Shown: positions 46,409 through 64,000, counted from the first letter of the stretch. The stretch is 64,000 bases of DNA from a virus (IMGVR_UViG_3300021978_000001:64001-128000); one strand, 5' to 3'. The notes: generated by a model not told the origin, from the letters alone. Numbers and translations are program-made.

Positions 46409-46730
46409 TCCTAAGCCCCGCATGCGCGGGGAACCTGGTTTGTGCTATCTGGCACGGCGGGCCATCCCCGCATACGCGGGGAACACTCTCTCTTGTCGTC
46501 TCAGTCAACGCCAGGTGTGGGGCCATCCCCGCATACGCGGGGAACACTGCGTGTAGAGTGAGCCCCTCTCTTCCCAAACGGGACCATCCCCGCATGCGCG
46601 GGGAATACGCGAATCAAAATCGAGGTCAAGCCCTTCTTGGCGGACCATCCCCGCATGCGCGGGGAACACTGCGCTTCCTTGTCTTTCTCGTCCTTCGAGC
46701 GCGGACCATCCCCGCATGCGCGGGGAACAC
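46409..46730 (-). CRISPR. Type I-E mini-array: 5 repeats plus 1 degenerate trailer, four 33-nt spacers; no cas genes in the window
   Basis: Repeat GTGTTCCCCGCG(C/T)ATGCGGGGATGG(T/C)CC at 46459, 46520, 46581, 46642, 46703 with an exact 61-bp period; trailer at 46409 after a 22-nt spacer. Confidence 0.95.
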
Positions 46731-55993: not shown

Positions 55994-56038
55994 CTCTTGA
56001 GACTGACACTAAGAATGAATGCGAACCCTGAAGGAAAG

Positions 56039-56110
56039 TGACCGTGGGGGGAATCGAACCCCCAACCATGGCTTTTAGAGAGCCTTGCTCTGCCGTTGAG
56101 CTACACGGTC
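56039..56110 (-). tRNA. Amber suppressor tRNA (anticodon CUA)
   Basis: GACCGTG-TA-GCTC AACGGCA GAGC-A-AGGCT CTCTAAA AGCCA-TGGTT-GGGGG TTCGATT CCCCC-CACGGTC-A. Confidence 0.92.
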
Positions 56111-56213
56111 ATGTGTGATGGAAGGTGTCTTCTAGTGTTTGCCGGACCAGAAGCAAGCGTATAAGCCAAAGCAAAGTACGATTCACCTTCCACCACAAAG
56201 GTGGAGACAGATA

Positions 56214-56241
56214 GGTACATCCCCGCAGGTGCGGGGAGCCT
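56214..56241 (-). CRISPR. Solitary type I-E-like repeat
   Basis: AGGCTCCCCGCACCTGCGGGGATGTACC; 21/28 to the array repeat with hairpin intact. Confidence 0.7.
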
Positions 56242-56338
56242 CCAACCTGATTCCTGTCCCGGCATCTCCGGCTTCCCTGGACAGGATGAACGTACCTTAC
56301 CCCAATGTTGGGAGCGTTGTCAAGCTGACCTACGCATT

Positions 56339-56455
56339 TTACTGTACCAACCCGAGTTTTTTCAGTTGGTGGCCTTGTGTCGCGGCCAACGCGTCTCGTT
56401 CCTCGGGGGTCATGCGCGCCCAAAAGCCTCGACCCTGATCCTTGAACTCGTGCAT
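56339..56455 (-). CDS. Small ORF (38 aa, MHEFKDQG...)
   Basis: AGGAAG RBS immediately after the NTase gene. Confidence 0.45.
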   Translation of the reverse strand: MHEFKDQGRGFWARMTPEERDALAATQGHQLKKLGLVQ

Positions 56456-56459
56456 GGGG

Positions 56460-56936
56460 TCATGCACTTCCTCTCAATGCAATGGCGAGCTTCTCAAGCT
56501 CTTCCTTGTCTATACTGTATCCTCGACCCGTGTACTTGATGAGCGTCTTGAGTGCGCCTACCGGACTCCACACCTCACCTGCTATCACGAGTCGCTTCTC
56601 TCTTCGGTCTCGCACCGCATCGACACACGACGCGACCAGGTTCCCTTCACGGTCCCGGGCCACCTGCATACACCGAAACAACGTCTTCGCGAACCAGGCA
56701 TCGAGTGCCATGGGTGCGATGACATCGACCGCGAGCGCGTTCTCTTTCTGGTAAGTCGCGCGCCAACGTTTGCTGTTGGCGAGCACATACCCTTCATGCT
56801 CCAGGAGTCTCGCGAGGTGATTCAAGGCGGTCTCCGAGGTCGGTAACACGTCAATGTCCCGGGCATCCTCGAAATCCAGATAGCTCCCCACGACCACGCA
56901 CCCCACAGGGAGCACGAACGGTACTGTATTCTCCAT
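56460..56936 (-). CDS. Minimal nucleotidyltransferase-fold protein (possibly CCA-adding/tRNA repair)
   Basis: VVGS...DARDIDV catalytic motif, DVI third acid, KY..RGY. Confidence 0.6.
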   Translation of the reverse strand: MENTVPFVLPVGCVVVGSYLDFEDARDIDVLPTSETALNHLARLLEHEGYVLANSKRWRATYQKENALAVDVIAPMALDAWFAKTLFRCMQVARDREGNLVASCVDAVRDRREKRLVIAGEVWSPVGALKTLIKYTGRGYSIDKEELEKLAIALRGSA

Positions 56937-56959
56937 CGAGAACCTCTCACTACAAAAAA

Positions 56960-56998
56960 GGGTACCTTACTTGATGTCTCCTGTCAAGTAAGGTACCC
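56960..56998 (-). promoter_or_regulatory. 15-bp inverted repeat (TACTTGA-N9-TCAAGTA) overlapping TTGACA-17-TACCCT promoter; also terminator-like
   Basis: GGGTACCTTACTTGA / TCAAGTAAGGTACCC followed by a T-run on the minus strand. Confidence 0.75.
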
Positions 56999-57048
56999 GC
57001 ATCCCCATGATTGCTTTCACAGGGAGTTACATATAGACAGGGTAGCGA

Positions 57049-57693
57049 TCACACACCCACCTCGATCTTCTCGGGCACTTCCGCAGCCTCAGTCTCCGCC
57101 TGGAGCTTCTCCGCCTGAGCCTTTGCGGCTTCGCGCTCACGGCGCGCCTTGTAGCGTGCGTCGCGAGCATCGACGCGCTCGCGATGGATCTTGGGGAACG
57201 TCGCGACGGTCGCCTTGGCGTCCTCGACCCACGCTTCCCAGTCCGCCTCGATGCGCGCCTTCTCCGCCTCCAGGATCTCAAGGCGCTGCTTCCAGAACAC
57301 ATGGTGCGTCCCCGGACCCCAAGGTGAGGGCTTGTAGGCGTCGATGTAGTGCTTGACGCGCGCCATCACGATCCCGAACCCCACCTCATGGGTGATGTCC
57401 TGCCCGGGGTGAGCGTAAGCGATCATATCCGAGAACTTACGACCGCGCAAGAACCCGTAAGCCAGGTACATGTGGCGCAAGCGCTCGCGGATGTTCCCCA
57501 CCTCCTTGAAGGACGCACCACATCCGTAGCGACGCTTGTGCTCGCGCTGGAAGGCTGCCCAGCATGCGATCTCGCTCTGGAAGGCGCGCATGTTCACGAA
57601 GTAGTAGCGACCCTTCAGGGTACACGCTTCTGCGCGCAAGGTCTTGTTGTCGAGGTAGTTCGAGGTTTCGGTCTGTTCGGTTTCTTTCGTCAT
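57049..57693 (-). CDS. Hypothetical protein
   Basis: AAGGA RBS before MTKETEQ. Confidence 0.7.
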   Translation of the reverse strand: MTKETEQTETSNYLDNKTLRAEACTLKGRYYFVNMRAFQSEIACWAAFQREHKRRYGCGASFKEVGNIRERLRHMYLAYGFLRGRKFSDMIAYAHPGQDITHEVGFGIVMARVKHYIDAYKPSPWGPGTHHVFWKQRLEILEAEKARIEADWEAWVEDAKATVATFPKIHRERVDARDARYKARREREAAKAQAEKLQAETEAAEVPEKIEVGV

Positions 57694-57760
57694 GGTATCT
57701 GTATCCTTTGGTGTGTTCTTCACGTTCTCTCTTCACTTCTCCTGTACGCTCGGGTCAGGA

Positions 57761-58123
57761 TCACGAAGGGGGAGGGCGCGAAGACAGCGCCAAGGGCAGC
57801 TCACGTACCAGATCACGCACGACCTCATCACACGGTTCTCCGCAAAGAGGGCGCAAGGCTACAGCCGTCAGCGCTCCCTCATAGAAGGGCTCGTGGAATG
57901 CTTTGTGCGGGATGTCTTCGGTACGGAGCGTTTGGACCGCATCTGCGAGGGTCGCAGGGTCCGCAGCAAGCAACACAATACGATTCGAGATCTCGTGCCA
58001 ACACTGAACATGCTCTGGATAGTCGAGCGTGAACTCGATCGCAGCATGCAGCGCTTGAGAGGCTTGCTGTCCCGGAGACAGGTCGTCCCGGGTGATGACG
58101 TAGAATTTAGCGTTCTACAACAT
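57761..58123 (-). CDS. Pth2-like protein with in-frame TAG at codon 3 (58115-58117)
   Basis: AGGAG-N7-ATG TTG TAG AAC GCT AAA TTC TAC GTC... gives ML*NAKFYVITRDDLSPGQQASQALHAA...FHEP...TAVALRP. Confidence 0.88.
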
Positions 58124-58191
58124 GTCAAAGCTCCTGTGTGGGTAAGAGCAACACACCATGCGTTGCTTCATGTGAAAGACTATGCACACAA

Positions 58192-58218
58192 AAAAAGGAG
58201 CCGTCAAGCTCCTTTTTA
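58192..58218 (-). terminator. Terminator hairpin whose loop carries the TTGACG -35 of the next promoter
   Basis: AAAGGAGC/GCTCCTTT stem plus T-run; TTGACG-18-CATAGT. Confidence 0.65.
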
Positions 58219-58236
58219 CGTTCGAGGTGTTTTTTA

Positions 58237-58515
58237 TCACCTCATGTTCGAGATGTCCACAACCTTGCCGCGAGGTTCAGGGTCATCACCAGGGGTCAAG
58301 CGCTCGACCATGAAGCCCGCCATCGCACCACCACCGAGGCGAATCTCATCTCCTCGATTCTTGAGGTTCTTGAAGTCCTCTCGGGTCATGTCCTCATTGG
58401 CGTCGATCAATTCATCGAGTCCGCCGCGCCAGACCATCTCCATCTGGACGTTGCCCCAGTTGTCCTCGAAGATGTCGAAAACTTGCACTTCAAAGTTCGT
58501 CGTTGCGTCCGTCAT
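58237..58515 (-). CDS. Hypothetical early protein
   Basis: Behind promoter at 58570. Confidence 0.75.
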   Translation of the reverse strand: MTDATTNFEVQVFDIFEDNWGNVQMEMVWRGGLDELIDANEDMTREDFKNLKNRGDEIRLGGGAMAGFMVERLTPGDDPEPRGKVVDISNMR

Positions 58516-58600
58516 GGTATCCCTCTCTTATCGTGATCATTCAGTGTTGGTGTCTTGTCCGTACACTTCCTGATACCACAAGGGTTAGGGCGCGTAAAAG

Positions 58601-59308
58601 TCAGTTCGATAAAAACTGATCTTTTTGTCGAACGATCTCGCGCGCGATATGCACCGCGAACGCCACCGGCTTGATCACCTTGCACCCATAACGGGGCGAT
58701 TCGGAGAGCATCTCAGGGTCGTACTCATTGAGGCACTCATAGAACTTGTCCTCGCTGTCGATCGCGTGCCACAGCTCGAACCAATCAGGCTCGGAAAGCT
58801 CCTCCTCTTCGTCCAACTCCTCGCCCTCTTCGAGATCATCGAGCAGTTCCTTGTGTGCGGCAACCTCGTGATCCCACCAATCCAGGATGTCATGCGCGGC
58901 GAGCTGTCCGTCATATGCATAGGGAGAGCGCACGGGGTTGTTCCCACAGTGATACTTCTCTTCGAGGTAGCGACCCCATGCATGCTGGTCGATGAAGCGC
59001 GCGGCATCCCAGACATCCGTGCCGCGATACCGGAAACGCATGCAGCCAAACGACCAGGTATCGACGTAGATGTAGCCGTTCTTGATGTAGAACTCGCTTC
59101 CGGTCGAGAGAGATCCCTGTGAGAGCGTGATCACGGTCCCGTATGGGCCTTCCTTGACCTTGGTGATGGGGTACTCGCCTTGAAAGGTCGGGAGCACTTC
59201 AGCGTCCGCGTGCGAGCGCAGGCGGGTGAGGTATTCATTCTCGGACATACATAACTCCTGAACGCAGATGAAACGTAAAAACGGCGTGTCGAACAAGGGG
59301 TGGGTCAT
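58601..59308 (-). CDS. Hypothetical protein
   Basis: 235-aa acidic ORF. Confidence 0.7.
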   Translation of the reverse strand: MTHPLFDTPFLRFICVQELCMSENEYLTRLRSHADAEVLPTFQGEYPITKVKEGPYGTVITLSQGSLSTGSEFYIKNGYIYVDTWSFGCMRFRYRGTDVWDAARFIDQHAWGRYLEEKYHCGNNPVRSPYAYDGQLAAHDILDWWDHEVAAHKELLDDLEEGEELDEEEELSEPDWFELWHAIDSEDKFYECLNEYDPEMLSESPRYGCKVIKPVAFAVHIAREIVRQKDQFLSN

Positions 59309-59514
59309 GGATAAAGCCTCCAGGAATTTCTGCCTGGCTTCGCCTTACACGCAGAGTGGCTACGTGTAAGGTATAGGAGGTTGCACGGGATTGAACCGTG
59401 CTATCGCTCATGTCAGCCCGAAGGCACCACGCGCGAATTATCCGAGAACCATAAACCCGGCATTTCGACACGCCGTTTGGTCTCCTGAATGTCGATGTGG
59501 TTGCATGCGAGGCG

Positions 59515-59542
59515 GGACCATCCCCTCATACGAGGGGAACAT
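59515..59542 (-). CRISPR. Solitary type I-E repeat with compensatory stem change
   Basis: Plus strand GGACCATCCCCTCATACGAGGGGAACAT; a G-C pair is replaced by T-A. Confidence 0.88.
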
Positions 59543-59578
59543 ATTTCTCGCACCATTCGCAATGGAGACCGTTCTCAG

Positions 59579-59650
59579 TGGAGCTTGAGAGACTCGAACT
59601 CTCAATTCAACCTTGCAAAAGTCGTGTGATCCCAGTTTCACCAAAGCCCC
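59579..59650 (-). tRNA. tRNA-Ala(TGC)
   Basis: G3:U70; loop TTTGCAA. Confidence 0.85.
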
Positions 59651-59653
59651 AAA

Positions 59654-59738
59654 AGAAGTGAGGGTGGTCAAGGTGGTGCATATGGGGGTCCTTGTTTGCT
59701 ATAAGATAACCCATGTGCGGCATACCACCCCCACTTCT
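59654..59738 (-). ncRNA. Y/YrlA-like family RNA, short form lacking the tRNA module (unit A)
   Basis: 14-bp terminal stem, GG-TATG/CTTG-ACC internal loop, GGGTTATC motif. Confidence 0.6.
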
Positions 59739-59762
59739 GACATCTTCCTGGGAAGAAGATAG

Positions 59763-59835
59763 TGGAGCCAGGGGGTCTCGAACCCCCGACCTCGACGCTG
59801 CCAGCGTCGCGCTCTCCCAACTGAGCTATGGCCCC
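59763..59835 (-). tRNA. tRNA-Ala(GGC)
   Basis: Canonical cloverleaf; loop CTGGCAG. Confidence 0.95.
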
Positions 59836-59855
59836 GTTCGTACTATGAACGCCCC

Positions 59856-60218
59856 TCAACCGAGGGTCATTTCCCCATCACAGAGTTCGTCGATCAGCGC
59901 ATCGAGTTCCAGGGGGACTTTGCCCTCATAGAACTCGATGCGCCTTTCCTGACCGACAGCATCTCTCCACACCACCTGGTATCTCATACCATCACAGATA
60001 GAGAAACCAGGTGGAATCGGAATCTTGGGGTCGATAGGTGGAGGAAGGGTGAGAGTTTCGAGGCCCTCACCCTGGTCCAATATACCTTCCAACCGTTCAA
60101 GCATCTGGAGAGATGCAGGAGAGAGGTTCGTCTTGAGCGAAGAAAAGGTCTGCTTCAAGAGAGGAAACAACCCGCCTTCGCGGATGTACTGCACTTGAAG
60201 ATGCTTGTCTTTGCTCAT
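59856..60218 (-). CDS. Emfourin-like (M4 protease inhibitor-like) protein
   Basis: YIREGG...L..IL...D.MRY.V......I.F.E...P.EL..LIDEL pattern recalled for emfourins. Confidence 0.5.
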   Translation of the reverse strand: MSKDKHLQVQYIREGGLFPLLKQTFSSLKTNLSPASLQMLERLEGILDQGEGLETLTLPPPIDPKIPIPPGFSICDGMRYQVVWRDAVGQERRIEFYEGKVPLELDALIDELCDGEMTLG

Positions 60219-60240
60219 CAGTTGAACCTCGCTATGTAAA

Positions 60241-60379
60241 TCTGAGCCGAACAAGGTGTGGATCTGGGGGTTTAGCGTGCTACCATTACACTACCCTGGG
60301 GGTTAACCCAGGGCCGGGACTCGAACCCGGACCGCCTGATTTGCATTCAGATAACCCATCTCCGGCATCTCGGCTCAGA
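60241..60379 (-). ncRNA. YrlA-like RNA with permuted tRNA module (unit B)
   Basis: T arm CCGGG-TTCGAGT-CCCGG, then CCCTGGG-ttaacc-CCCAGGG, then D arm; 10-bp terminal stem. Confidence 0.75.
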
Positions 60380-60409
60380 ACTGTGCTCTCTCTTGTTACG
60401 AGAGAAGAT

Positions 60410-60750
60410 CAAAGGTGTGTCCACCAAGGCTGCACCCGAGTAAGGGTATATAGGTGGCATCGTTGTGTGGCCGCCGTCTACGCGCCAACTCGTGGCCTAT
60501 CGCCGTGGAGAAGGTTCGCGCACCGGGCTGGCGGGCGCCCTCATGATCGAGATTGCTCTCGACCTTAGCCTTGAGCCTTCGTGGGGAAGGGACTCTCAAG
60601 GGAGGGTGAGCTTGGCCTGACAGGTGTAACCTCGATAGGAGACTACCCCGTTTCGCTAGACCCCTCACGGGGATTCACTACCTTCGGACCGTTATTGGGA
60701 TAACCCACCTACGGCAGCTCAGGCACAGCTCTTGATGAACACACCTTTGG
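60410..60750 (-). ncRNA. Large structured RNA of unknown family containing unit C (60608-60731)
   Basis: About 19-bp long-range closing stem, GNRA-capped hairpins, no credible ORF. Confidence 0.55.
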
Positions 60751-60892
60751 AGACCTCGGAGCTTCCGAGCGCGCACCACCCCGCTAAAGATAAAGCGGCT
60801 CGGTGCTCCGAGATCCCAAAGAAAAGTCACGGTCAAAGTGATGTATATGGAATATTCTATCTCCGATAATCCATACACGGCATACCGTAACA

Positions 60893-60973
60893 AGCGAGCG
60901 ACGGGACTCGAACCCGCATGCGTTAAAGCGACAGCTTGGAAGGCTGTTGTCCGACCAGTTGGACCTCACTCGC
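60893..60973 (-). tRNA. tRNA-Gly(TCC) with an enlarged variable arm
   Basis: Loop CTTCCAA, G1C2G3/U73, 13-nt variable region. Confidence 0.8.
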
Positions 60974-61172
60974 GCATACTCGTCTCTCCGAGCTGTCACC
61001 CGGTCTGTCCCAGGTTCGTCATGCGTCACACTCTCGGGCCGCATCGCCGCACGAGGGGATCTTCAGATCGCGTGACCCCTCGTGAATCACATGCGACCTC
61101 CGGCGTCTGGTCTCGCCGGGCCACGGGATTGTGCACGCGCATCTGCGCGGATGGAATCCTCGGGCGTCAGGT

Positions 61173-61315
61173 ATTGCGTGGTCAAACGGAGCGTAACAGG
61201 AGTGTTGACTCGTGCTCTGCCGGTTGAGCTAGAAGTGCCACTCGTCATGACACAACCCGGGACTCGAACCCGGAACCACAAGTTTGGATAACCCTATCAC
61301 TGCATACCACGCAAT
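61173..61315 (-). ncRNA. YrlA-like RNA with permuted tRNA module (unit D)
   Basis: 9-bp terminal stem with GG-TATG/TTG-ACC; T arm precedes an imperfect acceptor stem and D arm. Confidence 0.7.
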
Positions 61316-61437
61316 CATGGTCCTTCTCCCTAAGATCTCCCTGAGAAGAAGGTTTGGGTTGGATGAACCTCTCACTGACACCTTGATCGACCGAAATTGA
61401 CGACAACGACAGACAAGAGGATGAGAGGTTCATCCAG

Positions 61438-61512
61438 CGACTCCTACGGGATTTGAACCCGTGGTCTCCTGCGTGACAGGCAGGCGTCCACTCCAGACTG
61501 GACCGAGGAGCC
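61438..61512 (-). tRNA. tRNA-Asp(GTC)
   Basis: Loop CTGTCAC; G73. Confidence 0.95.
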
Positions 61513-61589
61513 GAAAGTGCTCTATCCGAGCGCTTTTGTATGATACCATGGAAACCTTATCCTGGAAACCAAGGTAGCGTCAAGTACCA

Positions 61590-61661
61590 ATCCGGGAGCA
61601 GGGCTCGAACCTGCATTGCGAGGATCAAAACCTCGTGTCCTGCCAATTAGACGATCCCGGA
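61590..61661 (-). tRNA. tRNA-Gln(TTG)
   Basis: U1:A72; loop TTTTGAT. Confidence 0.9.
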
Positions 61662-61720
61662 GTAATCGTGGCCCAAGCACTGCTTCGTGCAGTGAACATC
61701 CCGAGTGCTTGAGCCACGAT

Positions 61721-61924
61721 TCACGCATGTTCGGTGCCCGTGGCTTCCTCGATAAACGAGGAAATCACATGACGTTGAACCACCGCGTGGGGTGTCGCTT
61801 GTGACTGTGACCACACCTCGATAGTGCTCATCGAAACCTCGAAACGATCGGCAAGCTCTCTGCTGCTATGCAATTCTCGCAAGTAATGCAAGGCGAACAG
61901 GAAGAGTTTATGCGTCTCATTCAT
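61721..61924 (-). CDS. Small HTH protein
   Basis: SSRELADRFEVSMSTIEVW. Confidence 0.7.
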   Translation of the reverse strand: MNETHKLFLFALHYLRELHSSRELADRFEVSMSTIEVWSQSQATPHAVVQRHVISSFIEEATGTEHA

Positions 61925-62007
61925 CGAAACCTCGATCAGTGTCGTGTCGAGTGCAGGGTCCGAAGTCAGCGAACACCGCTTCTCCCTGCACGAGCAGGGA
62001 AGATAGA

Positions 62008-62152
62008 GTACACCGGATAAGGGATGAGAGTGGATGTTTTTGGCGCTTTACCACTAAGCTACACAGCCGTAAACGATGGCTGTGGGTTGGAATCGAACCA
62101 ACCGATCTCCCCGTTAAGAGCGGATAACCCACGGCTCTTCAGCCCGATGTAC
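62008..62152 (-). ncRNA. YrlA-like RNA with permuted tRNA module (unit E)
   Basis: T arm GTTGG-TTCGATT-CCAAC, CACAGCC-9 nt-GGCTGTG, D arm; 9-bp terminal stem. Confidence 0.75.
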
Positions 62153-62154
62153 AG

Positions 62155-62227
62155 TACCACAGGTGGGGGTCGAACCCACAACATCCTGGTTTTGAACCAA
62201 GCGCCTCTTCCATTGGGCCACTGTGGC
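62155..62227 (-). tRNA. tRNA-Leu(CAA) lacking the long variable arm
   Basis: Loop TTCAAAA; 5-nt variable loop; A73. Confidence 0.8.
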
Positions 62228-62234
62228 AGGCGGA

Positions 62235-62315
62235 GTTGCATACGTCAAGGGTTTTCTGCTGGGCAGGATCGCCACCGTCGTGGATGGATCTGCCTGACCT
62301 TTACACCTATGCAAC
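62235..62315 (-). ncRNA. Hairpin RNA, possible short member of the Y-like family (unit G)
   Basis: GTTGCATA/TATGCAAC terminal stem; AAAACCCTTGAC tail motif. Confidence 0.4.
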
Positions 62316-62421
62316 AACCCTGGAGTTCCCATCTCTCCGGTCTCTACGCGTCGTCACGCACCCTGTAGGAGCTACCCCACAAGATACAGCCTCGTGACGT
62401 GTGAGGCTACGCGCTGGGAAA

Positions 62422-62494
62422 TCGACATGCCAGGACTCGAACCTGGACCACCTCTTTCGTAGAGAGGCACTCTATCCAATTAAGTTACACGTCG
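62422..62494 (-). tRNA. tRNA-Arg(ACG)
   Basis: Loop CTACGAA. Confidence 0.93.
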
Positions 62495-62609
62495 AGAATG
62501 CCTCCCAGTGTACGGTGTCGAGCACACCGAGAGGACTTTTCACTGTGGTCGTCGAGCGATCTCAGTGAGAGCGTTATGCCACACCTTACGAGAAGGTGTC
62601 AAGACAATT

Positions 62610-62870
62610 TCATTTTTTCTTGAGGTCAGCGTCGGTGAGGCTCTTTTTCTGCCAAGCCGCCTCTTCCTCTTTAGCGCATCGCTTGCTGTACCGCCACGCG
62701 ATGGCATGGTCAATACGATCAAGCTCCTCACGCTCCTCGACGGTCAAGGTGCCTTGTGCTTCGAGCGCACGTTGTTGAGCTTTGAGCCTTTCGATGTGTT
62801 TCCGATCTGCATCTTCATCAGTCATGCTTACCTCGTCTGAAAAGTACCCTGCCGTAAGTTCGCTTCTCAT
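62610..62870 (-). CDS. Hypothetical protein
   Basis: GAGGG RBS; 86 aa. Confidence 0.6.
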   Translation of the reverse strand: MRSELTAGYFSDEVSMTDEDADRKHIERLKAQQRALEAQGTLTVEEREELDRIDHAIAWRYSKRCAKEEEAAWQKKSLTDADLKKK

Positions 62871-62944
62871 GCGCCCTCGTCTTAAAGGCGCACAGAATAC
62901 CCCTCCCCAGAGGTAAAGTTTAGAATGATGAACCCGACAGGGTA

Positions 62945-63017
62945 TAGCGGGTGAGGGAATCGAACCCCCAACTGTAGGTCATGAGCCTACCGAGATATAC
63001 CGTTTCTCCAACCCGCA
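62945..63017 (-). tRNA. tRNA-Met(CAT), initiator-like
   Basis: 1:72 mismatch; loop CTCATGA. Confidence 0.85.
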
Positions 63018-63051
63018 ACAAATGAGTGTGCTGTTCCTGTGCCCCGGCGCC

Positions 63052-63195
63052 GGACCATCCCCGCATACGCGGGGAACACGCTCCACAACACACTCGGGCG
63101 CCTGGGTATACCCACGACGCAGATCCGCTTGACGGTGGAGCGACAGGCGGAAGTGGTACGGCAAGGCGAACCATCCCCGCGCACGCGGGGAACAT
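63052..63195 (-). CRISPR. Two type I-E repeats (63168-63195, 63052-63079) flanking an 88-nt insert
   Basis: 63052 copy is near-identical to the array repeats; followed by 34 nt and then tRNA-Met. Confidence 0.88.
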
Positions 63196-63235
63196 GGACC
63201 TCACGGATGCATCGACGCGAGATCTCACCATACCA

Positions 63236-63309
63236 TAGCTGGACGCGGACTCGAACCGCGAACCTCAGCCTTATCAAGACTGCGCTCTAACCTGTTGAGC
63301 TATCCAGCT
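63236..63309 (-). tRNA. tRNA-Ile(GAT)
   Basis: Loop TTGATAA. Confidence 0.93.
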
Positions 63310-63314
63310 TCAAG

Positions 63315-63403
63315 TGCTTGCCCCTGGACTCGCACCAGGATCTCTCGCGTGATGGCGAGCAGGTTACATACGGCTACCATGGATACCTTGACCCCAGACA
63401 AGC
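63315..63403 (-). tRNA. Atypical/pseudo tRNA-Tyr(GTA)
   Basis: 7-bp acceptor, D stem, long variable arm; C33 and T loop TGCGAGT are non-canonical. Confidence 0.5.
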
Positions 63404-63407
63404 AAGT

Positions 63408-63554
63408 GTACATGAATCGAACAAGGTAGTGAGCAAGGGGTTTTTACGAGTGCTACCGTTACACCACATGTCCGGGTGGACATGCTGGGACTCGAACCCA
63501 GACCACGCGCTCCGCTGGCGATAACCCTTATCTCGGTCATCTCGATTCATGTAC
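63408..63554 (-). ncRNA. YrlA-like RNA with permuted tRNA module (unit F)
   Basis: 13-bp terminal stem; T arm CTGGG-TTCGAGT-CCCAG, CATGTCC-accc-GGACATG, D arm. Confidence 0.8.
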
Positions 63555-63556
63555 AG

Positions 63557-63630
63557 TAGGGCTGACAGGAGTCGAACCTGCGACCATCTCCGTGTAAGGA
63601 AGCTGCTCTGACCAACTGAGCTACAGCCCT
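63557..63630 (-). tRNA. tRNA-Val(TAC)
   Basis: Loop CTTACAC. Confidence 0.88.
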
Positions 63631-63666
63631 GTGATGTGCTTGCTCGGATAAGGGAAGTGGCGAGCG

Positions 63667-63757
63667 GCGCCATCCCCGCATGCGCGGGGAACACTAAATC
63701 TGAACAAACACAAGCAGAGCGCCCGAGATGAACCATCCCAGCATATGCAGGGAAATC
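63667..63757 (-). CRISPR. Two type I-E repeats (63730-63757 degenerate, 63667-63694) with a 35-nt spacer
   Basis: Followed by 36 nt and then tRNA-Val. Confidence 0.8.
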
Positions 63758-63926
63758 AACGTATGCCTTTCGCGCTCTGTGGTGAAAGGTAGCTGGGTAC
63801 CGTTGACTCTCCCGTAGGAGCGGCCCCTGCTTGCCTCTCACGCTTTGTTATGCGTGCGTTCCTATTCACTTGTCAAAGATCTTGAGTCGTTGGCGTTGTG
63901 CGTTGCACCGTCGCCGTGACATCAAC

Positions 63927-63955
63927 CGTTATGCCTTGTTCAAATCATGCTGTCA
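63927..63955 (-). promoter_or_regulatory. Sigma70-like promoter upstream of the RNA cluster (TTGACA-17-CATAAC)
   Basis: Read on the minus strand. Confidence 0.6.
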
Positions 63956-64000
63956 AGCATTTTCTTCCTGAACCGGGCAAAAAGTTCGATCGGAGTGCAT

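Follow-up and report, generated by a model that had tools for sequence, protein, structure and literature searches.

Single type I-E CRISPR repeats in place of parts of tRNA, tRNA-like and Y-RNA-like genes in the tRNA operon of a huge phage

Homing endonuclease genes are known from phage tRNA clusters, segB of phage T4 being one example. Viruses also carry single repeats of the kind found in CRISPR (clustered and regularly interspaced short palindromic repeat) arrays. Among these, the RNA anti-CRISPRs (Racrs) have nearby promoters and a hairpin and handle like those of a working repeat (PMC10651486), while virus-borne mini-CRISPR arrays serve in conflicts between related viruses (PMC11656645). 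Huge phages encode CRISPR-Cas systems with compact arrays that lack Cas1, Cas2 and Cas4 (Al-Shayeb et al. 2020, PMC7162821), and CRISPR RNAs (crRNAs) have been engineered that are released by tRNA enzymes (PMC6546412) or that lack the 3′ hairpin (PMC4499155). Here we describe a locus with some features of each of these, namely the tRNA operon within a stretch of 64,000 nucleotides (nt) of the viral record IMGVR_UViG_3300021978_000001, in which single type I-E CRISPR repeats stand in the place of parts of tRNA, tRNA-like and Y-RNA-like genes. The stretch, referred to as the window, comprises bases 64001-128000 of a 437,490-bp virus that has terminal repeats, is rated complete and originates from a hydrothermal-vent metagenome. 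Positions are those of the window unless marked as genome positions.

A first-pass annotation of the window had listed six further type I-E repeat copies in the tRNA operon. With a covariance model trained on 52 array repeats from the same genome, all six were recovered on the - strand, which is also the strand of all 13 tRNAs in the window, and the chance expectation from window shuffles was 0.00 matches at ≤3 mismatches. The copies, named below by the positions of the annotation, are the following:

63051-63079 (- strand): repeat copy 63052; 51.2 bits, identical to the array consensus
63167-63195 (- strand): repeat copy 63168; 43.7 bits
63666-63694 (- strand): repeat copy 63667; 43.0 bits
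59514-59542 (- strand): repeat copy 59515; 38.7 bits, stem with a compensated U-A pair
63729-63757 (- strand): repeat copy 63730; 23.4 bits, degenerate, its stem broken by a T.T mismatch
56218-56236 within element 56214-56241 (- strand): repeat copy 56214; 21.4 bits, hairpin only

The solitary copies retain the hairpin by means of further compensated pairs, and the ATGGTCC handle is mostly kept. The 8-nt 5′ handle that follows the hairpin, ATGGTCCN, is exact at 63052 and 59515, and the variants ATGGTTC (at 63168 and 63730) and ATGGCGC (at 63667) are both seen in arrays as well. Copy 56214 has the handle ATGTACC where two relatives show ATGGTTC, and its orthologue in one relative scored 30.2 bits with the same covariance model. 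The operon copies are genuine units of the phage's own type I-E repeat.

Relatives of the phage were obtained via neighbouring proteins as contigs from four other metagenomes with ∼90-97% identity. They fall in three types, namely L019 (with L150 and L152; 72-kb contig), L022 and L023. A homologue search with the AAA_28 protein returned the same relatives only, and an IMG/VR search with a neighbouring protein found none. At the orthologous sites, the relatives have none of the repeats 63667, 63168, 63052 and 59515, each of which stands in for other sequence. The replaced segment is always located on the upstream side of the junction, where the protospacer-adjacent motif (PAM) would lie, and the inserted repeats are bordered on this side by 0-27 nt of unrelated filler. 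Downstream of each lineage-specific repeat follows native sequence that is conserved in the relatives without the repeat. The L019 type has insertions of its own, which are located in tRNA-Gly(UCC), before tRNA-Gln and in two Y-RNA-like RNAs. The only copy common to all is 56214, at 103 nt upstream of tRNA(CTA), with an intact stem and a loop that differs at 3-4 positions. Furthermore, the allele with the repeat at 63667 recurs in a 283-nt contig of an independent seawater sample, and the insertions are therefore not assembly artefacts. Every operon copy consists of one repeat of 28-29 nt in place of part of a tRNA, tRNA-like or Y-RNA-like gene, and all except 56214 are lineage-specific. With regard to the objection that the repeats might be randomly decayed and not conserved beside tRNAs in related phages, only the copy upstream of tRNA(CTA) proved to be conserved in place; the others are lineage-specific and not randomly decayed.

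Several candidate arrays and matches were rejected. The pairs 63730/63667 and 63168/63052, spaced at 35 and 88 nt, are no small arrays but separate single-repeat insertions; the sequence between the paired repeats is native and orthologous to that of the relatives, and neither of the genome's leader types is present there. A seemingly longer array upstream of tRNA-Val in one relative turned out to be a 144-amino-acid open reading frame (ORF) between tRNA-Trp and tRNA-Val (L019:4976-5410). Extra operon DNA in the relatives also includes an insertion of ∼650 nt after tRNA-Ala(TGC) (L023:263-900). This tRNA itself occurs as two very different alleles, an unusual one in the window (59578-59650) and in L023, and a canonical one in L022 (8340-8414) and L019 (9463-9538), and this distribution suggests mosaic exchange inside the operon. 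No match was obtained for the 27-nt filler at 59543-59569, which was considered as a former spacer. Cultured phages yielded tRNA matches only, an IMG/VR search with the repeat pattern returned two contigs, both unrelated, and an IMG/VR search for a repeat followed by a T-loop gave two chance matches without a repeat. The insert of the unit designated D had no match in IMG/VR or in the metagenomes of the Joint Genome Institute (JGI).

At three sites the replacement has destroyed a tRNA gene. The degenerate copy 63730 sits within what L022 and L019 keep as an intact tRNA-Trp, and no second tRNA-Trp was found elsewhere in the genome. In tRNA-Gly(GCC), just past the window (genome 128009-128086), the D loop and anticodon arm are swapped for a repeat, while the gene is intact in L022. 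The stem of this repeat contains two compensated pairs, and its CACCAC/GTGGTG arms are common to two lineages and do not occur in arrays. Lastly, a repeat takes the place of the D arm of tRNA-Lys(UUU) (genome 148855-148882), a tRNA that the L019 type keeps intact. The tRNAs missing from the genome's set of 32 are exactly Trp, Gly(GCC) and Lys(UUU), the three chimeras. The chimeras fold as three-way junctions, in which the acceptor stem, together with the T-arm where it is kept, is joined by the repeat hairpin as third arm. In the Lys chimera, a rebuilt 5′ strand (GCCGGGTGGG; genome 148883-148896, - strand) perfectly complements the 3′ strand, and the resulting 10-bp helix consumes the T-stem. 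This rebuilt strand looks like the product of fold-back repair.

In type I-E systems, the PAM is located directly 5′ of the protospacer on the crRNA-like strand, and its last base becomes the 29th base of the repeat. We read the three bases at the corresponding site for each insertion for which a repeat-less allele was available. The eleven junctions were AAG, GAG, AAG, AAT, AAT, AAC, AAC, TAG, GAG, AGC and one that was ambiguous. Accordingly, AAN was present at six of the eleven junctions against an operon background of 0.048, and A at position -2 was present in 9/11 against a background of 0.223. Five of the ten junctions available before the Lys case were AAN (P ∼5e-5); AAC at the Lys junction was predicted before the relative's allele was retrieved, and it became the sixth. 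When the three junctions at tRNA loop ends were left out, A at -2 was still enriched (5/7, P = 0.008). The would-be guides that follow the repeats match the repeat-less alleles at 26-32 of 32 positions, with AAN, NAG or once AGC directly upstream. Three of the guides are identical to the relatives over their whole length (32/32). We infer from these base patterns that the junctions were probably made or selected by a PAM-reading process.

The phage genome encodes a type I-E interference module consisting of Cas3 (HD domain and helicase), Cas7, Cas6e, Cas5 and a Cas8e-Cas11 fusion. The phage Cas6e has retained the His at the position aligned to H20, the catalytic residue of CasE from E. coli. 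As Cas6e is encoded by the phage itself, the enzyme expected to cut the operon hairpins is the phage's own, and the match to the consensus, the hairpin, the handle and the cognate Cas6e together predict that the operon copies would be substrates of this enzyme. Cas1 and Cas2 were both searched for in the 437-kb genome and neither was found, as is the case for most CRISPR-Cas systems of huge phages (PMC7162821). Genome-wide there are ∼65 repeat copies in a dozen short arrays and as scattered singles, all but one of them on the - strand. A canonical mini-array of five repeats at 46458-46730 (- strand) has the same repeat as the tRNA-operon copies with a period of 61, being 28 plus 33, and hence bears out the annotated 33-nt spacers. 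The repeat hairpin has a GC-rich stem of 6-7 bp and a 4-nt loop. The array repeats are 100% paired, with compensatory changes from G-C to A-U and 10 cells altered on both sides.

A few other properties of this system were recorded. Short arrays separate the type I-E cas genes (genome 13000-31300), in which Cas8e is fused to Cas11, and the arrays are preceded by two distinct conserved leader types. Diverged copies of one spacer occur in two arrays (genome 28905 and 25949), and the 96-nt 'spacer' of array 17 (genome 23095-23190) hides an extra repeat with a 2-nt stem insertion that a plain mismatch search had missed. The repeat family is found in Streptomyces, Deinococcus, Verrucomicrobiales, Burkholderiales and others and is widespread in bacterial type I-E systems. 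An assignment of the host from the repeat family was rejected, because the family is too broadly distributed to be diagnostic.

The elements of the operon that surround the insertions are listed here in the order of transcription:

63847-63956 (- strand): two promoter-like elements, TTGACA-N17-19-ATAAC, which precede the Trp remnant and the Val unit
63715-63778 (- strand): tRNA-Trp(CCA) remnant, acceptor stem retained, interior swapped for degenerate repeat 63730-63757 (aligned to the intact tRNA-Trp of L022 and L019)
63666-63694 (- strand): single type I-E repeat in place of a 45-nt segment present in relatives; absent in L022 and L019
63631-63665 (- strand): native tRNA-Val leader, 2 differences from L022 and L019, both without an upstream repeat
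63556-63630 (- strand): tRNA-Val(TAC) (ARAGORN and Rfam)
63154-63235 (- strand): tRNA-like three-way junction directly after tRNA-Ile, in which repeat 63168-63195 replaces a 52-nt hairpin and T-arm of the relatives
63080-63167 (- strand): 88-nt native stretch between two independent insertions, longer by 28 nt in the relatives
63051-63079 (- strand): single consensus repeat replacing ∼27 nt of the relatives; absent in L022 and L019
63019-63050 (- strand): native tRNA-Met leader, 2 differences from L022 and 3 from L019, neither with a repeat
62944-63018 (- strand): tRNA-Met(CAT) (ARAGORN and Rfam)
62573-62602 (- strand): third promoter-like TTGACA-N17-19-ATAAC element
59514-59577 (- strand): lineage-specific block after tRNA-Ala(TGC), with 27 nt of filler and one repeat, replacing ∼170 nt (aligned to L022, L019 and L023)
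59290-59513 (- strand): conserved structured non-coding RNA downstream of repeat 59515; its first 32 nt, the would-be guide, are identical in three relatives
56294-56323 (- strand): promoter-like TTGACA-N18-TAAGGT, upstream of the unit of repeat, insert and tRNA(CTA); conserved in relatives
56214-56241 (- strand): repeat-derived hairpin, sole copy kept in place in all four relatives; hypervariable loop
56111-56213 (- strand): 103-nt structured insert between repeat and tRNA(CTA), conserved and near-invariant in four relatives
56038-56110 (- strand): tRNA with anticodon CTA, amber suppressor type (ARAGORN and Rfam)

The 13 tRNAs of the window were assigned with ARAGORN and Rfam. The window contains three matches to TTGACA-N17-19-ATAAC, all of them in the tRNA operon, versus 0.04 expected. 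Promoter-like elements precede 63730/63667 and 56214, some solitary repeats being within 150 nt of such an element, and the remaining copies sit within the polycistron. From the repeat to the tRNA start, the distance is 36 nt for Val and, depending on whether the ARAGORN or the Rfam start is taken, 33 or 34 nt for Met. The annotated distances of 34 and 36 nt thus essentially hold, but the intervening segments, being kept in relatives without a repeat, are native tRNA leaders and not acquired spacers. In the Gly chimera, ∼34 nt separate the repeat from the tRNA-like 3′ end. The Met, Val and Gly-chimera units therefore have the layout of a tRNA-flanked guide, with handle and guide bounded by a tRNA or tRNA-like element; this likeness concerns the layout only.

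Two inserts of 88 and 103 nt with closing stems had been annotated behind repeats, and the sizes are correct. The 103-nt insert has a closing stem of 14 bp (z = -3.8 versus shuffles), with which one G.U to A-U change in the relatives is consistent. In the 88-nt insert, the GCTCCAC/GTGGAGC stem is present, but the fold is no better than that of shuffles (z = -0.5), and one arm of the stem is lineage-specific filler; the notion of a structured RNA 'cargo' is unconvincing here. In the fold of 63154-63235, the closing stem has 12 bp and is accompanied by a side hairpin and by the repeat hairpin. Within the RNA downstream of repeat 59515, a structured portion of ∼190 nt (59290-59480, - strand) is closed by a stem of 15 bp and includes a T-arm-like hairpin; this portion is near-invariant in four relatives and gives a weak RAGATH-36 match (29 bits).

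Other observations concern the wider operon and its surroundings. Four sub-threshold matches to the Y-RNA-like YrlA are located between tRNAs on the - strand (60242-60375, 63420-63528, 61210-61281 and 62045-62102), all of which combine a long closing stem with a T-arm and a GGGTTATC motif. A protein of the TROVE/Ro60 family is also encoded by the phage (genome 295346-296269, + strand; 132.6 bits). TAG terminates 31/217 long frames despite the CTA tRNA, and there is hence no sign of genome-wide TAG recoding. About 10 copies of another promoter-like motif (TTTACG, a spacer and TGTGGTATCAG) lie upstream of genes at 22073-58627 (- strand), in the repeat families D1, D3 and D4.

We tentatively favour the explanation that the insertions are scars of CRISPR attack that would now yield self-derived, handle-bearing guides against repeat-less alleles, a reading that may well be correct although we would stop short of calling it probable. 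The initial event would be an attack on a conserved non-coding locus of the phage's own, either by the host or via a self-matching spacer taken from a relative. Cas3 degrades DNA toward the PAM side, and it would have resected the DNA on that side of the target. Repair would then have drawn on an array, copying the repeat together with a few bases from the spacer before it, by way of the homology between spacer and protospacer. The resulting allele, having no PAM, would be immune and would carry a transcribed repeat ahead of native sequence. Such an origin would explain the PAM-like bases in the intact alleles, the consistently upstream position of the replacement and the filler of 0-27 nt.

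Once in place, the hairpins would be co-transcribed with the tRNAs and cut by the phage Cas6e. The native downstream RNA would thereby start with the 8-nt 5′ handle, its 3′ end being provided by RNase P, RNase Z or trimming, and Cascade would load this handle-bearing RNA as a guide. The target would be the repeat-less allele of a co-infecting relative, whereas the phage's own allele would be safe because the repeat occupies the PAM position. Guides could in this way be made and kept in place without Cas1-Cas2, and the insertion may spread by repair, as in homing. The first-pass annotation had proposed that host Cas6 together with RNase P could release crRNA-like RNAs. The layout makes such a release feasible and the PAM-like bases agree with it, but the Cas6 need not be that of the host, since the phage encodes both Cas6e and the effector. 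In engineered Haloferax t-element systems, cutting on the Cas6 side combined with tRNA enzymes yields working crRNAs (PMC6546412), and E. coli Cascade accepts a crRNA without the 3′ hairpin (PMC4499155). The most far-reaching form of this idea is that the guides are heritable in place: a repeat beside a PAM would convert the phage's own native locus to a crRNA that destroys co-infecting insertion-free alleles and spares the carrier, and repair could spread the 28-nt insertion as a CRISPR homing element or gene drive. This we regard as conceivable but doubtful.

A number of observations weigh against the guide interpretation. The PAM pattern was seen post hoc save for one case, and in three of the AAN cases the junction is at the end of a tRNA loop, where AA is frequent. 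Half of the differences between guides and relatives are within positions 1-8, a proportion confounded by closeness to the junction. Several guides differ from the relatives in the seed, so that present-day targeting of these relatives is doubtful. None of the in-place guides recurs as a spacer in an array of the phage genome. At five of the ten alignable junctions, the 28-mer is followed by a base other than that of the relative, so that simple copying of a spacer taken from the site fails to fit all cases. For the conserved copy 56214 there is no repeat-less allele among the relatives, and copy 63730 is decaying. The distance to the 3′ processing site spans 13-46 nt across units, and the lengths of 34 and 36 nt are consequently not a rule. 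Finally, protospacers for the canonical spacers were found neither in the phage genome nor in the relatives' fragments, IMG/VR or JGI metagenomes.

A rival explanation is that of scars with no present function, left when recombination or break repair, perhaps after a CRISPR attack, copied repeats into a tolerant non-coding region where they now drift, without guiding Cascade or having a regulatory role. Most copies are indeed lineage-specific, being present in one relative and lacking in others, copy 63730 is decaying with its T.T mismatch and loss of the T-arm, and the destroyed tRNAs were evidently dispensable. The rebuilt strand of the Lys chimera is what fold-back repair would give, and the PAM-like signature may stem from the scar origin alone. 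Drift does not, however, readily account for compensated pairs that are absent from arrays (CACCAC/GTGGTG in the Gly chimera and U-A at 59515), for the 8-nt handle that is mostly kept though a bare hairpin needs none, or for the copy upstream of tRNA(CTA), of which the stem is intact in all four relatives while the loop varies at 3-4 positions. We consider loss of all function rather unlikely on these grounds. Alternatively, the hairpins could serve RNA processing or regulation, with Cas6e cutting them or staying on them to separate, stabilise or time the release of tRNAs and structured RNAs such as the amber-suppressor tRNA and the 103-nt RNA, or with tRNA-scaffolded hairpins buffering the phage Cas6e and Cascade. 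The conserved order of promoter, repeat, 103-nt structured RNA and tRNA(CTA) would fit this, as would the presence of repeats within a promoter-driven polycistron of tRNAs and structured RNAs, and chimeras that keep the acceptor stem and T-arm recognised by tRNA enzymes while displaying the repeat hairpin in a three-way junction. Moreover, Cas6-type enzymes can govern the fate of other transcripts into which their hairpin has been introduced (PMC4604432). Yet the relatives have the same tRNAs without these hairpins, the positions vary between lineages, and the PAM-like bases in the repeat-less alleles are left unexplained. Type I-E Cas6e is a single-turnover enzyme that remains on its product, which makes it a poor general RNase, and a processing role is in our judgement unlikely.

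The annotation had also suggested that the repeats titrate host Cascade in the manner of Racrs, as decoys, some of them tRNA-scaffolded, that soak up Cas6e, Cas7 or Cas5 of the host or of a rival phage. It would suit such decoys that the repeats are solitary and viral, that their family is common across bacterial type I-E systems and that some of them lie no more than 150 nt from a promoter-like element, and a tRNA scaffold would make a stable and abundant small RNA; two type I-E Racrs have been shown to be functional (PMC10651486). The fit is nevertheless poor, because the phage's own effector uses the same repeat and would be poisoned by decoys. In addition, Racr candidates are defined as lacking an association with cas genes (PMC10651486), and no acr genes were present nearby among the ORFs scanned. 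We therefore rate decoys as improbable. Standalone repeats that give regulatory cr-like RNAs are likewise widespread (bioRxiv 10.1101/2023.03.03.530964), and the units might be autoregulators of the CreA/CrR type whose guides pair partly with cas or toxin promoters. They are, however, ∼100 kb from the cas genes and have no seed match of at least 12 nt in the cas region, which makes this option very improbable; a 13-nt seed match of the Val guide was dismissed as a chance match inside an ORF.

The comparison with described systems underlines what is particular to this locus. As for Racrs (PMC10651486), there are solitary repeats with a promoter-like element within ∼250 bp, but the independence from cas genes is lacking: the phage has a full type I-E effector of its own with the same repeat. 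Furthermore, the repeats interrupt tRNA and tRNA-like genes, the sequence that flanks them is native and in the intact allele PAM-adjacent, acr neighbours were not seen, and tRNA is not mentioned in the text of the Racr paper. The virus-borne mini-arrays (PMC11656645) share the proposed targets, namely close relatives of the carrier, but the present locus lacks a repeat-spacer-repeat unit, a leader and a spacer of foreign origin; the role of 'spacer' falls to the carrier's own locus in place, and phage rather than host Cas proteins would serve. With the systems of Al-Shayeb et al. 2020 (PMC7162821), the phage shares its huge size, an abundance of short arrays, a large set of tRNAs and an interference module that comes without adaptation genes, while a word search of that text gave no repeats inside tRNA genes or tRNA-repeat chimeras. 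The order of handle, guide and tRNA or tRNA-like element is that of the engineered crRNAs (PMC6546412, PMC4499155). The icrRNAs are laboratory constructs with both ends made by tRNA enzymes (PMC6546412), whereas the units described here are natural and their 5′ end would come from Cas6e. Among the papers searched, none described CRISPR repeats within tRNA genes. The homing endonucleases of tRNA clusters offer a parallel of another kind, as these too are selfish insertions in a tRNA region; they cut a co-infecting relative's allele that lacks the insertion, and repair may spread them. In the present case, however, the 'endonuclease' would be Cascade-Cas3 encoded 100 kb away, and a 28-nt repeat would be all that is mobile.

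Solitary viral repeats are currently read as decoys, and here they occur in a phage with its own effector, where arms of tRNA and tRNA-like genes have repeatedly been replaced by repeats with a PAM-type signature at the junction. If the insertions are only scars, they would represent a record of CRISPR hits on phage tRNA genes and of their repair. If, on the other hand, native RNA is loaded in Cascade, they would provide guide RNAs by a route independent of adaptation genes, and would be a new weapon or homing device between related huge phages.

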